Virus record (IMG/VR): IMGVR_UViG_2703718815_000009
Origin: a virus
Lineage: Duplodnaviria > Heunggongvirae > Uroviricota > Caudoviricetes
DNA length: 4,909 bases
Direction: 5' to 3' (one strand)
Shown: positions 1,795-4,909 of the stretch, piece by piece
Layout of the letters: each line of letters begins with the position of its first letter
How positions within the stretch are numbered: the stretch's first letter is position 1
Translations under genes and position numbers: made by a program
The notes under the pieces: model-generated
Told to the model about the DNA's origin: nothing
The model's database searches: none
What the model saw: only the letters and a program-made list of their open reading frames with translations

Positions 1795-2056
1795 TCAGGC
1801 TGGCGGCGCACCGCCGCCACCCATCCACTAACACAGAGATCTAACCATGAATACTGGATATACGCCCGAACAGGGGCGGGGCTTCGTTCGTCCTGGTGAA
1901 ACTAAAAAGCCATGTTATCGGGTATTTTCAGGCATAAAAAAAGCGGCCCCGATAAGGAACCGCCTTTCTGAACAATTAACCTGCTGCGAAAAAAATGGAT
2001 CAGTGCAGGGGAATTATATCAACCGTGTGGCGAAGCGCCACAATTGCCGGATAACA

Positions 2057-2088
2057 GGCAAAACAAAGGCGACCGCAAAAGGGTCGCC
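2057..2088 (-). terminator. Rho-independent terminator for the minus-strand transcription unit
   Basis: On the minus strand: GGCGACC (stem), CTTTTGC (7-nt loop), GGTCGCC (stem), followed by TTTGTTTTGCC. On the plus strand the same hairpin is followed by AGTGGGAAC with no U tract, so it is oriented to stop leftward transcription from the 2691 gene. Confidence 0.6.
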
Positions 2089-2154
2089 AGTGGGAACAAG
2101 GGAAAACAAAAGCATCACCAACAATGCCACATTTGCGGCTGGTGGGCAATGCAA

Positions 2155-2328
2155 TCAGTCTGGTTCAGTTCGTTGCCATACCTGCAATGAGCGCTTTTCC
2201 CTGTACTCTTTAAGGAATTGCTCAAGGGCAAAAGCACATGGCGCGAATCTTTCTGATTCATGCTCTATCTTTCTGCGTCGTCTTTTCCGTGTCGGTGATA
2301 ATGTTTTGGTCAATTCTTTATCGGTCAT
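2155..2328 (-). CDS. Hypothetical small arginine-rich protein (57 aa), doubtful; may instead be a 3' UTR
   Basis: ORF MTDKELTKTLSPTRKRRRRKIEHESERFAPCAFALEQFLKEYREKRSLQVWQRTEPD. ATG at 2328-2326 is preceded by AGGA with a 7-nt spacer. It lies 57 nt downstream of the regulator gene and about 70 nt upstream of the minus-strand terminator, so it is inside the predicted transcript. Against: it uses AGA/AGG/CGA Arg and ATA Ile codons that the neighbouring genes avoid, and no domain is recognisable. Confidence 0.3.
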   Translation of the reverse strand: MTDKELTKTLSPTRKRRRRKIEHESERFAPCAFALEQFLKEYREKRSLQVWQRTEPD

Positions 2329-2385
2329 TGTGTTGTCCTGCATAGCAATGCGCCGTAATACCTTACACCACGGCGCTGGTGATGG

Positions 2386-2691
2386 TTACTCCTGCTCTTT
2401 GGCCTTGCGACGCTGGAGTTCTTCACGCGCGACGGTGACGAGTTGCCCGATCTCCTCGGCAGCTTTAACTCCGATTTTTTCCACCTGCGCCAGCGCATCG
2501 AGCGAAGAAACCAGGGGGTTTTCTCCGCTTCCTTCTGCCTGGCGGCGGGCGATCTCACCGCGCATGGCGGTTACTATGAATCCGGCGTTGCTTTCGCCGT
2601 CCAGTTTTACGGATTCCATGCCTTCAAAAGCATCATGTGGGATACGAATTGAAATCTGTTTTGATTTGTCGTTGATAGTGTTTTTTGCCAT
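2386..2691 (-). CDS. Small putative DNA-binding regulator, possibly ribbon-helix-helix (Arc/MetJ-like) with a charged helical C-terminal tail
   Basis: 101-aa ORF starting at the ATG at 2691-2689, preceded by a strong AGGAGA Shine-Dalgarno with 6-nt spacer (the upstream in-frame ATGs lack an RBS). Codon usage is good. The N-terminus KQISIRIPHDAFEGMESVKLDGESNAGFIVTAMRGEI has the strand-helix-helix spacing of Arc-type repressors (compare Arc FNLRWPREVLDLVRKVAEENGRSVNSEIYQRVM), a fold-level inference only. The gene abuts an operator-like region with inverted repeats. Confidence 0.7.
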   Translation of the reverse strand: MAKNTINDKSKQISIRIPHDAFEGMESVKLDGESNAGFIVTAMRGEIARRQAEGSGENPLVSSLDALAQVEKIGVKAAEEIGQLVTVAREELQRRKAKEQE

Positions 2692-2713
2692 GTGCATTCT
2701 CCTAAACAAAAGA

Positions 2714-2789
2714 TGTGATTCAGTATACACAAAAAAGAATCACAAAAAATACTTGACCTGTGATTCAGTTGATTTTAATTTAAATCACA
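2714..2789. promoter_or_regulatory. Divergent promoter/operator region with two copies of TGTGATT-N17-AATCACA around a TTGACC -35 element
   Basis: TGTGATTCAGT occurs identically at 2714-2724 and 2759-2769. Inverted partners GAATCACA (2737-2744) and AATCACA (2783-2789) lie at the same offset, giving two ~31-bp sites 45 bp apart. Rightward promoter candidate: -35 TTGACC 2753-2758, 17-bp spacer, -10 TAATTT 2776-2781. Leftward -10 candidate: TATACT (reverse complement of 2722-2727). The second operator overlaps the rightward promoter spacer. Confidence 0.6.
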
Positions 2790-2814
2790 CCTCAGTAAGA
2801 GGATGTAAACGACA

Positions 2815-2848
2815 ACGCCCCGAACTGTTTGCGGCAGTAGCGGGGCGT
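2815..2848 (+). other. GC-rich stem-loop in the 5' leader of the rightward operon (ACGCCCCG ... CGGGGCGT, 8-bp stem, 18-nt loop)
   Basis: Read directly as a perfect 8-bp inverted repeat, with additional CTG/CAG pairing possible inside the loop. There is no downstream U tract, so it is not a terminator; it lies between the predicted promoter and the RBS at 2867-2870. Confidence 0.4.
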
Positions 2849-2878
2849 CTAACCAAACCGTTAAACGAGGTAACGATT

Positions 2879-3223
2879 ATGGCTGGAACACAGCATACCC
2901 AAACTCACCCTAAATTTATATACACCTTCCTGGCGGTGCACCGTGATTGCATAGCTGACGGTAAAAGCACTGTACACGTAGCCGCTGATACGCTGGTTGA
3001 TGCCTGCGAGATGCTCAATGACATGGGTTATATCTCGGCAACATGGAAAGGGCGCGAAGAAAACACGCTGTTTATTCAGAAATGCGAAAACAATTTTATC
3101 TGGCGTTTTATCGCCCTGAGCACGGCACAACCGCGCGTGATTACCATTGAGGCCACCAGCGAACAGGAAGCACGCCAGCGTGATGGTATTCGCCGCCCGT
3201 ATTCGTCAGGGGGTACGCCATGA
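2879..3223 (+). CDS. Hypothetical protein (114 aa), first gene of the rightward operon
   Basis: ATG at 2879 preceded by GAGG (2867-2870) with 8-nt spacer; stop TGA 3221-3223 overlaps the next start (ATGA). This is the only credible part of the 458-aa frame 1847-3223 in the ORF track. No domain recognised. Confidence 0.7.
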   Translation: MAGTQHTQTHPKFIYTFLAVHRDCIADGKSTVHVAADTLVDACEMLNDMGYISATWKGREENTLFIQKCENNFIWRFIALSTAQPRVITIEATSEQEARQRDGIRRPYSSGGTP

Positions 3224-3480
3224 GCAATAACACCCGTCCGGACGCAGTCGCCGAAGCAATCAAAACACTGATTGATGCGCTGATTGATATTTCTGTTATC
3301 GCAGACAAGGCGCATAAGCACGCCACCAGTGAAACAGAATATGCCGGGGCTTTCGTTCCTCACTCACTGGCTGTTATGCAACTTAGTGCTGATATGGCAC
3401 TGAATGAGGCTAAAGCCATCCTGATTGCTGATTGTGAAAATGGGGGGGGGGTATGCGTGATGATCGTTTTAATGCCCTGA
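3220..3480 (+). CDS. Hypothetical protein (86 aa); 3' end runs through the G10 tract
   Basis: ATG at 3220 overlaps the upstream stop (ATGA); GGGGG at 3208-3212 gives an RBS at 7-nt spacing. Alanine-rich and predicted helical. The last 13 codons (GGGVCVMIVLMP) lie after the homopolymer and look like out-of-frame read-through, so the true C-terminus is uncertain. Confidence 0.55.
   Translation: MSNNTRPDAVAEAIKTLIDALIDISVIADKAHKHATSETEYAGAFVPHSLAVMQLSADMALNEAKAILIADCENGGGVCVMIVLMP
3442..3451. repeat. G10 homopolymeric tract at the junction of two overlapping ORFs
   Basis: Ten consecutive G read directly at 3442-3451, encoding GGG of the upstream ORF and ending 1 nt before the ATG (3453) of the next. 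G11 would fuse the two ORFs in frame (...ENGGGGMRDDRF...); G9 would end the upstream ORF at GGGYA-stop. Confidence 0.95.
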
Positions 3481-3686
3481 AACAGGAATTTGATGGCGCA
3501 CCGGAAGATACAGATATTGCGCTGTTATGTGTTGCTGACATGGTAAAAGCTGCAAGTTTTTTACTGGAAACCGCCGAACATTCAGGAACGGGTAGCGATA
3601 TTCTCAATATTGCGTCGGACTATGCGGAATATGTGGCAGAGGCGCGTTACAGAAGAAAATTCCCGGAGAATGTAAGCCATGTGTGA
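3453..3686 (+). CDS. Hypothetical protein (77 aa); possibly the C-terminal half of a frameshift-split or slippage-controlled gene
   Basis: ATG at 3453 immediately after the G10 tract; the 5' G residues of the tract (3442-3445) could act as a Shine-Dalgarno at ~7-nt spacing. Stop TGA 3684-3686 overlaps the next start (ATGTGTGA). Acidic and alanine-rich, no domain recognised. Confidence 0.5.
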   Translation: MRDDRFNALKQEFDGAPEDTDIALLCVADMVKAASFLLETAEHSGTGSDILNIASDYAEYVAEARYRRKFPENVSHV

Positions 3687-3912
3687 TATTTACAATGACA
3701 CAGTAGACCGTGCATACCGTGCTCTTGCTTACAGTGAAAACATGCTTGAAATATTGCGCTTATGGCTTGAAACGCTTGGCGATAATGAAAGAGATAAACG
3801 CAACAGCAATATTGCGACGGCGTTAATAACGCTTCTTGAGCCGGTAATAATGGAACTACAAGAAATAGACCTTTTGCACGACAGATATAAAGAACAACAC
3901 ACCGGGAAATAA
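3679..3912 (+). CDS. Hypothetical protein (77 aa)
   Basis: ATG at 3679 with GGAGA (3665-3669) upstream at 9-nt spacing; overlaps the upstream stop by 8 nt. Predicted helical (MLEILRLWLETLG...), no domain recognised. Confidence 0.6.
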   Translation: MCDIYNDTVDRAYRALAYSENMLEILRLWLETLGDNERDKRNSNIATALITLLEPVIMELQEIDLLHDRYKEQHTGK

Positions 3913-3917
3913 AAACC

Positions 3918-4217
3918 ATGAAAAAGAAAATTTCTGGCTTTACTGCCAGCGGCCCCGTTCGGCCTGAAATCCGCCCCGGCGATATTTTCCGGGATAACTA
4001 TGGCGGCACGGTAACGATTAAAGGCATTGCCGGACGGTGCGTTACTTACCGCCGTGATGGGTACGGCTATGACTGCGTGATGCCTGTTTATCAGTTCCGG
4101 CGTGATTTTTCACTGATACAGGCCACGCCATGCAAACAGCCCACCAGCAACGCAAAGGCACGGGCAAATATTCAGAAAATGAAAAACATGATTAACGCAT
4201 TCAGGGGCACAAAATGA
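3918..4217 (+). CDS. Hypothetical protein (99 aa), basic
   Basis: ATG at 3918, 5 nt after the upstream TAA, with a weak GGGAA RBS; stop TGA 4215-4217 overlaps the start of the next gene (ATGA). No motif recognised. Confidence 0.6.
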   Translation: MKKKISGFTASGPVRPEIRPGDIFRDNYGGTVTIKGIAGRCVTYRRDGYGYDCVMPVYQFRRDFSLIQATPCKQPTSNAKARANIQKMKNMINAFRGTK

Positions 4218-4909
4218 AACTGGCACCGAACTTAAAAAAACAGCCACACGACAAAATGACCGAAGTCATTATTTTTGCAGGTAGTGATGCCTGGGCGCAC
4301 GCGAAACAGTGGCAGGAACAGGACGGGCGACTTGCTGGCGACAACGTGCCACCTGTATGGCTTGGAGACAGCCAGCTTGACGAACTGGCAGACCTGAAAA
4401 TTATCGACGATGGTCGCTATTGTGTGCGTGTGTATAAAGCCGGGCACATCAGACCATCAAACATCAATGCCATCGGGCAAAAGCTGGCGGCGGCAGGTGT
4501 ACGGGATGCGAATTATTACCCCGAGGGAATGCACAGCCAGAAGCTGGAGAACTGGCACGACTACCTGCAACGGATCCGCGAACAGGCAGAGCGCGGGGAA
4601 ATTCTTACTGACGAGCAATACAGCCAGCGAAAAACCACGCTACCAATGAGCATTGGATCTGCAGGGTACGACACACAGCTTGATTATGTCGTTAAGGGCG
4701 TGATTCCGGCTAATTCATTGTGTAGCACATACGGCGCGAGCGGTTCCTATAAATCGTTCCTCGCGTGTTCCTGGGCGTGTCATGTTGCCACGGGTCGCCA
4801 CTGGGGAGGCCGCAGGGTGGCGCATGGTTCGGTGATGTATGTCGTCGGTGAAGGTGGCATTGGTGTCCCTCGTCGTATCAAAGCATGGGAAATCGTTAAT
4901 GATGAACGG
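4214..4909 (+). CDS. RepA-like replicative P-loop NTPase (AAA_25 / RecA-fold helicase family), 3' partial, runs off the window
   Basis: Open frame from ATG 4214 (AGGGG RBS upstream, coupled to the preceding stop) to the window end, 232 codons with no stop. Residues ~150-215, SLCSTYGASGSYKSFLACSWACHVATGRHWGGRRVAHGSVMYVVGEG, parallel the P-loop and following strand of RSF1010 RepA-type helicases (GGAGKSMLALQLAAQIAGG...GPVIYLPAED). The Walker-A-like motif GASGSYKS is deviant, with Tyr where the second Gly normally sits. The ~150-aa N-terminal region is unassigned. Confidence 0.75.
   Translation, partial: MKLAPNLKKQPHDKMTEVIIFAGSDAWAHAKQWQEQDGRLAGDNVPPVWLGDSQLDELADLKIIDDGRYCVRVYKAGHIRPSNINAIGQKLAAAGVRDANYYPEGMHSQKLENWHDYLQRIREQAERGEILTDEQYSQRKTTLPMSIGSAGYDTQLDYVVKGVIPANSLCSTYGASGSYKSFLACSWACHVATGRHWGGRRVAHGSVMYVVGEGGIGVPRRIKAWEIVNDER

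Follow-up and report, generated by a model that had tools for sequence, protein, structure and literature searches.

What does a row of five small genes do between the control region and the replication gene of a phage satellite? The question is raised by a stretch of 4,909 nucleotides (hereafter the window) catalogued as IMG/VR virus record IMGVR_UViG_2703718815_000009, in which an original prediction, made from the letters alone, described an operon of five small, translationally coupled open reading frames (ORF1 to ORF5; Table 1). Our analysis identifies the window as the left arm of an EcCICFT073-type phage-inducible chromosomal island (PICI), lying beside roxA in an Escherichia coli draft genome. 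The identity of the island and its gene order make the five genes, in all likelihood, the promoter-proximal part of its rightward early/replication operon, and the best overall explanation, which we hold with fair confidence, is a coupled early operon, induced through AlpA, that would deliver host-directed or accessory proteins together with a replication helicase. Two of the products belong to families that already have names, one of them (RgdR) with an experimental literature, and current views of PICIs are not overturned; the only unexpected features are a fusion/fission polymorphism at a poly-G run and a frameshift in the Icd-like gene that is private to this contig.

An EcCICFT073-type island and its coupled operon

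On the source contig (LOIP01000001.1, draft assembly GCA_001607335.1) the genes potABCD-pepT-roxA lie directly upstream of the integrase, and this is the site occupied by the Sakai prophage-like element Sp7 (CP-933C, O-island 51) and by EcCICFT073. The integrase is 96.3% identical to ECs1574 of Sp7 and 95.6% identical to the integrase of EcCICFT073, and the AlpA-family regulator is 96.8% identical to AlpA of EcCICFT073. The arrangement is that of a PICI: an integrase at one end and at a PICI-specific site, alpA 3' of int, and the replication gene (rep) 3' of the small-gene block. L001 and L002, two close relatives, sit at another site (tRNA-Pro) as islands about 10 kb long and carry genes for SSB, a major capsid protein and a head decoration protein; they fit the expected size and content (about 10-15 kb, without phage lysis or tail genes), and the same content has been described for EcCICFT073 (Fillol-Salom et al. 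2018, PMC6092414). The position first proposed for the five genes, in a satellite between the regulatory region and the replication gene, is therefore borne out, as a coupled, co-directional operon of a PICI that ends in a replication ATPase. Within this left arm, no P4-type family beyond int, AlpA and rep was found in Pfam, NCBIfam or PHROGs, and neither the Rfam nor the tRNA scan of the window gave a match.

All five ORFs are present with the positions and lengths first listed (114, 86, 77, 77 and 99 amino acids), and they are chained as first described: by ATGA at 3220-3223 between ORF1 and ORF2, by ATGTGTGA at 3679-3686 between ORF3 and ORF4, by a gap of 5 nucleotides (3913-3917) between ORF4 and ORF5, and by ATGA at 4214-4217 between ORF5 and rep. 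The junction between ORF2 and ORF3, absent from the original description, is a 28-nucleotide overlap (3453-3480) right behind a run of ten G residues. A G-rich, Shine-Dalgarno-like motif stands 6-14 nucleotides 5' of every start, and no terminator-like site was found on the plus strand between 2750 and 4909.

The geometry of the junctions is also kept in related loci, of which a pattern scan for the ORF2/ORF3 junction gave 143 (90 from IMG/VR and 53 from metagenomes). Their constant order is a divergent YlcI/YnfO gene, an Icd-like gene, an optional cassette, ORF2, ORF3, ORF4 (sometimes replaced or absent), a DUF4222 gene corresponding to ORF5, and rep. The ATGA between ORF5 and rep is found in 109 of 109 loci and the 5-nucleotide gap before ORF5 in 101 of 102; ORF3 and ORF4 overlap by 8 nucleotides in 58 loci and are separated by a single nucleotide in 42; and the usual junction between ORF1 and ORF2 is an 11-nucleotide overlap, ATGTGCAATAA (77 of 92 loci). 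Purifying selection acts on the ORFs: the median pairwise ratio of nonsynonymous to synonymous substitution (dN/dS) across related loci is 0.22-0.31 for ORF2, 0.22-0.23 for ORF3, 0.30 for ORF4 and 0.35 for ORF5, against 0.7-1.8 for the same DNA read in the other two frames (a first extraction, from 7 loci only, gave 0.36 for ORF3). The operon is conserved across related islands, and none of its ORFs matches a structural or housekeeping phage protein in Pfam, NCBIfam, PHROGs or phage genomes.

Parts of the 1.6-kb operon region are present in 1808 of 5426 complete E. coli genomes (about one third), with up to 6 matching places per genome, and at least 80% of the region lies together at one place in only 5 of them; the module is therefore a mosaic. 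In a collection of 50,697 phage genomes the whole 1.6 kb finds no nucleotide match; at the protein level ORF5 matches nothing and the Icd-like protein only one record, a 16.5-kb 'induced prophage', and this near-absence marks the genes as satellite genes and not phage genes. A DUF4222 pattern search of the GTDB species representatives returned one Shigella locus only, with patterns too strict to judge spread.

The related loci also show the operon acting as a cassette array with conserved junction sequences. The optional cassettes between the Icd-like gene and ORF2 (L005-L147) are either of a type of 63-76 amino acids, like ECs1579 of Sakai, or of a 70-amino-acid type as in L002, and ORF4 is sometimes exchanged for an unrelated small ORF. 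Many of the small proteins end in S-H-V, S-H-A or similar (3677-3686 and 3219-3230 in the window, and the corresponding ends in relatives). These endings arise because the last codons contain the start of the next gene (GCC ATG NNT GA), and are not a feature of the proteins. Profile comparison by hhalign gave no paralogy among ORF2, ORF3, ORF4 and ORF5 (probabilities below 1%).

Table 1. Features of the window, in order of position
Feature	Position	Strand	Basis or remark
Tyrosine integrase, 409 aa	1..1230	+	Pfam Arm-DNA-bind_3 and Phage_integrase
AlpA-family regulator, 62 aa	1606..1794	+	Pfam Phage_AlpA, E 2.7e-18
Terminator-like hairpin after leftward unit (GC hairpin and T run)	2088-2068	-	Terminator scan
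Small Arg-rich ORF, 62 aa, distal gene of leftward unit	2155..2343	-	Ortholog of CFT073 C_RS30800
YlcI/YnfO-family protein, 101 aa from ATG 2691, divergent from operon	2386..2691	-	NCBIfam NF041551, E 3.7e-18; phrog_6522, full length
Operator-like inverted repeats around -35-like TTGACC (2753-2758) and AT-rich -10 region	2714..2794		Repeat search
GC-rich hairpin ACGCCCCG/CGGGGCGT, presumed ORF1 leader	2815..2848	+	Inverted repeat
ORF1, 114 aa	2879..3223	+	ORF list
Site of 17-bp deletion (GCAATCCCCGGCTGGCT in relatives)	3177..3178		DNA alignment with L001 and L002
Out-of-frame remnant of Icd C-terminus, VMVFAARIRQGVRHEQ*	3180..3230	+	+1-frame translation
ORF2, 86 aa	3220..3480	+	ORF list
G10 homopolymer, ORF2/ORF3 junction	3442..3451		Longest homopolymer in window; length-polymorphic in nature
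ORF3, 77 aa	3453..3686	+	ORF list
ORF4, 77 aa	3679..3912	+	ORF list
ORF5, 99 aa	3918..4217	+	ORF list
Replication protein, 5' part: N-terminal domain and AAA_25/RepA helicase	4214..4909	+	Pfam AAA_25, E 8.7e-21; phrog_2850; cut by contig end

Products of the operon and known systems

The first description had recognised no domains in any of the five products. This fails at both ends of the operon: ORF1 passes the NCBIfam family NF033153 (Icd-like; 48.4 bits against a cut-off of 25) and ORF5 passes Pfam DUF4222 (PF13973; 83.5 bits against a gathering threshold of 27, E 7e-24). For ORF2, ORF3 and ORF4 it largely stands, with profile searches giving only unnamed PHROGs and nothing in Pfam, NCBIfam or PADLOC. 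Structure prediction with Foldseek, proposed at the same time, gave a barrel fold for ORF5 and only generic helical bundles for the fused product of ORF2 and ORF3.

ORF5 is basic (pI 10.25), its homologs are almost all 99 amino acids long, and it is 64.6% identical to RgdR (ECs1581) and 68.7% identical to c1493. It shares with these two proteins its length, its charge, the position 5 nucleotides after a small gene and the ATGA overlap with the replication gene (Flockhart et al. 2012, PMC3378721). When expressed, ECs1581 and c1493 activate type III secretion and repress motility (PMC3378721; review PMC10877973); this regulation of host promoters (LEE1, motility) has been shown for these two proteins only, and for ECs1581 the DNA binding was weak and non-specific, so that a cofactor role was proposed by the authors (PMC3378721). 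ORF5 differs from RgdR by a proline at position 20, its residues 20-22 being PGD and not RGD; among 118 close homologs this position is P in 77 and R in only 5. AlphaFold2 models ORF5 (mean pLDDT 73.6, about 87 in the core) as an SH3/Tudor-like barrel of five strands with a basic helix behind it, and a sequence search of the PDB gave no match. A small cofactor associated with RNA polymerase or DNA is a reasonable working idea for the modelled protein, with a fold too common to carry it. Since the ORF5 stop overlaps the rep start in every locus compared, whether rep is of the helicase or the primase type, ORF5 could equally well work with the N-terminal domain that the rep types share.

ORF1 matches NF033153 in two stretches and is therefore a tandem, N-terminally extended form. 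The match covers positions 1-32 of the 48 in the profile, and intact relatives cover 1-48 at 65-78 bits. The protein is 98% identical to the Icd-like protein of L001 over residues 1-101 and diverges beyond, and the DNA alignment places a 17-bp deletion at this point (Table 1). The 17 bases are kept in 58 of 58 loci with a comparable Icd variant, and the exact 114-amino-acid protein was found on this contig only. The domain is incomplete: the segment CVMVFAARIRQ falls outside the matched part and lies out of frame behind the deletion, where the remnant VMVFAARIRQGVRHEQ* matches CVMVFAARIRQGV of the Icd-like proteins of L001, CFT073 and Sakai. The ATGA junction at 3220 is thus a by-product of the deletion and not the native junction, and ORF1 as it stands here is probably a loss-of-function allele with a frameshifted C-terminus, which would be unsurprising for a toxic gene. 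A PDB sequence search with ORF1 gave no match.

Read further 5', the ORF1 frame runs on without a stop for about 1 kb, as an ORF of 458 amino acids (1847-3223, plus strand) running antisense through two minus-strand genes. The old Sakai annotation called the equivalent stretch a coding sequence (ECs1576, 247 amino acids), and RefSeq marks the minus-strand genes in CFT073. The long frame is probably an antisense artefact; the start of ORF1 at 2879 is supported by the annotation of L001.

The family matched by ORF1 is named after Icd of phage P1, from the immI operon (c4-icd-ant). P1 Icd is a small protein that heads a translationally coupled operon and inhibits cell division. The window differs from the P1 operon in that no antirepressor lies downstream, and ORF1 differs from P1 Icd in that its domain is duplicated and its C-terminal third is missing; for the PICI members, inhibition of division is a putative activity. 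Upstream of the Icd-like gene there is no Rfam match, and hence no P1-type C4 RNA.

ORF4 is an acidic (pI 4.7), helical protein that matches phrog_2196 (E 1.5e-38). Its homologs form 487 clusters, almost all of 77 amino acids and essentially all from E. coli; it is 73% identical to the 77-amino-acid protein of EcCICFT073 and weakly (26%) to ECs1580 of Sakai Sp7, which holds the same position. To judge by sequence, ORF4 and its two upstream neighbours, ORF2 and ORF3, are small acidic helical proteins restricted to satellites.

Among the closest known systems is EcCICFT073, the prototype Gram-negative PICI of E. coli CFT073, for which alone helper-dependent induction, replication and packaging have been shown (PMC6092414). 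It shares with the window the roxA/phoQ site, the gene order and a G8TT tract at the junction discussed below; its genes run from an Icd-like gene (66 amino acids) through a 76-amino-acid cassette, proteins of the ORF2 type (73), the ORF3 type (73) and the ORF4 type (77), and the DUF4222 protein c1493 to a primase with 62% identity to the rep of the window over its first 131 residues. It differs from the window in its short and intact Icd-like protein, in the extra cassette after the Icd-like gene, and in a replication protein of the primase type, where the window has the RepA-helicase type; identity with the orthologs there is only 45% for ORF2 and 54% for ORF3.

A second system bears on what the operon does. 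In strain ECOR61 a prophage-encoded operon responds to a phage accessory protein with growth arrest or cell death (Silas et al., bioRxiv 10.1101/2023.04.06.535777). Compared by architecture alone, it resembles the window in an N-terminally extended Icd-like gene followed by small overlapping hypothetical genes and a replication/primase gene. By analogy, the operon of the window might be primarily an abortive-infection or superinfection-exclusion module, in which a phage protein acts as trigger and the Icd-like protein, the small proteins and rep arrest or kill the cell; we give this roughly one chance in four. All six linked genes of ECOR61, the primase included, were needed for the effect, and removal of the Icd-like gene abolished it (bioRxiv 10.1101/2023.04.06.535777). 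Its three hit-gene spans (about 366, 186 and 192 nucleotides) and the count of six genes resemble ECs1577-1582 of Sakai Sp7, which belong to the same operon class. EcCICFT073 also interferes with lambda, with the responsible genes among c1499 and c1500 not yet identified (PMC6092414). However, the link to ECOR61 rests on architecture, and the two small-gene spans of about 186 and 192 nucleotides are closer to ECs1578 and ECs1579 of Sakai than to ORF2 and ORF3; the presumed effector, the Icd-like gene, is frameshifted in the window; and no PADLOC-DB model matches ORF1, fused ORF2/3, ORF4, ORF5, rep, the YlcI/YnfO protein or AlpA at E <= 1. Moreover, the arrest in ECOR61 could simply be the known toxicity of uncontrolled PICI induction (PMC6092414). 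The two readings overlap, and an abortive-infection role is not exclusive of an early operon. The suggestion in the original prediction that such genes serve host takeover or interference finds some footing in the Icd-like family, named after a phage division inhibitor, and in the similarity to ECOR61, but leaves ORF2, ORF3 and ORF4 without an assigned function.

The poly-G run between ORF2 and ORF3

ORF2 and ORF3 are both small, acidic (pI 4.66 for ORF2) and helical. ORF2 matches phrog_5146 and the N-terminal half of phrog_2512; ORF3 matches phrog_24341 and the C-terminal half of phrog_2512, and has an ATG of its own right after the G tract. The tract, which slips because it is a homopolymer, is probably also the ribosome-binding site of ORF3. 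Across the 143 loci the tract plus T or TT spans 9-14 nucleotides: G7TT in 33, G8TT in 61, G9TT in 30, G10TT in 5, G11TT in 2 and an interrupted run in 12. In the modal G8TT form, which is also that of Sanger-sequenced CFT073, the TGA of ORF2 overlaps the start of ORF3 as ATGCGTGA, an 8-nucleotide overlap with the same geometry as the ORF3/ORF4 junction. In the state of the window, the 28-nucleotide overlap adds nine hydrophobic residues (VCVMIVLMP) to ORF2, whose last nine codons are thus a consequence of tract length. In a third state the two genes are fused in frame into proteins of 154-155 amino acids, which are common; one of them (P0001) is identical to ORF2 plus ORF3 except in the tract (G8). 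The canonical two-gene overlap accounts for 50% of the loci, the state of the window for 24% and the in-frame fusion for 27%.

By comparison of these sequences the two-gene state is the ancestral and modal one, a view drawn from the tract spectrum itself, the recurrence of split forms, equal constraint in split and fused loci, and the separateness of distant relatives. The exact ORF3 of the window occurs on 43 contigs, and ORF2 forms of 79 and of 86 amino acids occur on dozens each. The dN/dS of ORF3 is 0.22 in split and 0.23 in fused loci, and that of ORF2 is likewise equal; whatever the state, the ATG, the length and the dN/dS of ORF3 are preserved, and ORF2 alters only its last 2-9 residues or is fused. 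Fused proteins always retain the Met at which ORF3 starts. Among 1.84 billion representatives searched, the ORF2/ORF3 family has only 64 members, mostly separate N-type or C-type proteins; the distant C-type relatives begin exactly at the ORF3 Met, and the more distant N-type proteins lack a Gly run. Long fused proteins in this search (P0413, P0423 and others) were set aside as gene-calling or repeat artefacts. Fusion is tolerated in about a quarter of the loci, which suggests that ORF2 and ORF3 act together. The AlphaFold2 model of the fused product is helical (pLDDT 59.6), and Foldseek against the PDB returned its generic helical bundles at E >= 0.29.

Homopolymer contingency loci underlie phase variation by slipped-strand mispairing in Neisseria, Haemophilus and Campylobacter. 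The G run of the window's family, 7-11 residues long, is like them in that it varies between otherwise identical sequences and shifts the frame, and is unlike them in that slippage alters the C-terminus of ORF2 or fuses the genes and switches neither off, with ORF3 keeping its start; a change of length that turns a gene on or off was not found. In the literature on PICIs that we searched, such a tract was not described. The run might be a selected, reversible switch between two proteins, a tailed ORF2 with ORF3, and a single fusion of different activity, an idea that we regard as unlikely. In its favour, alleles from G7 to G11 all occur, all three frames are populated, 8 of 18 groups sharing identical 400-nucleotide flanks hold more than one tract length, and the window and P0001 differ in the tract only. 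Nevertheless, the evidence consists of comparisons between loci; E. coli has intact mismatch repair; the run is interrupted in 11 of 107 unique alleles; and the frame counts, once identical haplotypes are collapsed, favour the canonical two-gene state (54 canonical, 28 of the window's class and 25 fused; non-uniform, chi-square p 0.0008). Both reading frames survive in every tract state, which leaves no obvious ON/OFF, and the frame distribution together with the equal dN/dS fits near-neutral slippage around a preferred state. Nor does RNA structure follow the run, the folding of 3400-3500 being no better than that of shuffles (z 0.01). Programmed ribosomal frameshifting at the G run was rejected because no stimulatory structure lies downstream.

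Our first reading, in which ORF2 and ORF3 were one gene broken by a frameshift, was rejected by the population and representative data. In its fuller form, the two would be a single gene (phrog_2512, 154 amino acids) broken by sequencing error or by decay in a four-gene, degenerating operon; this is now largely refuted for the family by the tract, constraint and distant-relative data, and we consider it improbable for the window as well. It draws on the match of ORF2 and ORF3 to the two halves of phrog_2512, on the common fused proteins with P0001 among them, on the damage to ORF1, on the draft state of the assembly and on the finding of the exact 86-amino-acid ORF2 on one contig only. On the other side, 73% of the 143 loci are out of frame across the tract, among them CFT073 and contigs from Illumina metagenomes; dozens of contigs carry a split form; where the genes are split, ORF3 is unbroken and under the same constraint as where they are fused; the distant relatives are separate and start at the ORF3 Met; and the modal tract gives a canonical coupled junction. 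That the open frames are there by chance, or that the region is non-coding and regulatory, as their small size and the lack of a Pfam or NCBIfam family for ORF2, ORF3 and ORF4 might hint, is practically inconceivable and already refuted by conservation, with dN/dS of 0.22-0.35 against 0.7-1.8 off-frame, conserved lengths and junctions, PHROG E values of 1e-29 to 1e-39 and hundreds of homolog clusters.

Control region, proposed operation and meaning

Upstream of the early operon, the 187-bp divergent region contains two inverted-repeat pairs, TGTGATTC (2714-2721)/GAATCACA (2737-2744) and TGACCTGTGATT (2754-2765)/AATCACACCTCA (2783-2794), both built on TGTGATTC, together with two copies of the direct repeat TGTGATTCAGT. 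The YlcI/YnfO-family protein encoded on the other side has a weak ribbon-helix-helix-type hint in Pfam (PF07704, E 0.015). It and the 62-amino-acid protein that follows it, for which there is no Pfam family, form a leftward two-gene unit (2155-2691, minus strand), and the same pair is found in CFT073. For the presumed leader of ORF1 the folding energy is -32.4 kcal/mol (z -2.6), with weaker structure over the ORF1 ribosome-binding site; the leader hairpin belongs to no Rfam family and could be a regulatory RNA element or a protein-binding site.

At the other end of the operon, rep resembles the EcCICFT073 and Sakai primases at the N-terminus, with 62-66% identity over its residues 1-131. This N-terminal module of about 130 residues (4214-4606 in the window, 8601-9000 in L004 and 5742-6140 in L148) is common to RepA-helicase-type and primase-type PICI proteins, and a DUF4222 gene overlapping it by ATGA always comes before it. 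The source contig breaks off within rep (position 4909 of the window; 11690 of L003), and the collapse of several related islands during assembly may explain the stop.

In the operation that we propose, the operon of the resting island would be kept off, probably by the divergent YlcI/YnfO-family protein at the inverted repeats. AlpA of EcCICFT073 activates PICI genes on induction by helper phage (PMC6092414), and by analogy the operon would be switched on through AlpA when a helper phage induces the island. A single transcript, probably starting near 2790, would then cover the five coupled genes and run on into the replication helicase gene. The Icd-like protein would act on the host, by division block or toxicity, and is probably inactive here; ORF2 and ORF3, ancestrally separate, probably work together, with the G run slipping among its three states; and the RgdR-type protein may modulate transcription, binding DNA weakly and without specificity and perhaps serving as a cofactor associated with RNA polymerase. 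ORF2, ORF3 and ORF4 would be satellite-specific accessory factors delivered alongside the replication initiator.

Several points weigh against this proposal. We infer both the promoter at 2753-2781 and the repressor role of the YlcI/YnfO protein; a consensus promoter scan called no promoter at 2753-2781, and just 6 of 149 loci show the exact operator pattern. Neither folds nor profile searches point to a function for ORF2, ORF3 or ORF4. ORF5 carries PGD in place of the RGD motif that is important in some assays of RgdR (PMC3378721). The 17-bp deletion and the G10 length are read from the draft assembly alone, and the island may be defective in this strain, with its Icd-like gene frameshifted and the contig ending inside rep.

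The operon sits where a phage satellite turns on, and experiments have dealt with its RgdR-type gene alone, and there only with side effects on virulence genes. The module is now mapped onto EcCICFT073, which is genetically tractable, with its intact genes, its separate genes and its conserved junctions identified. Two leads are concrete: the link of the Icd-like gene to phage-triggered cell death, and the natural fusion of ORF2 and ORF3. If the poly-G run were a switch after all, it would give a phage satellite a form of phase variation that works by fusing and splitting genes, with three configurations differing in helper or host engagement, and it would act on a protein pair found in hundreds of E. 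coli genomes.

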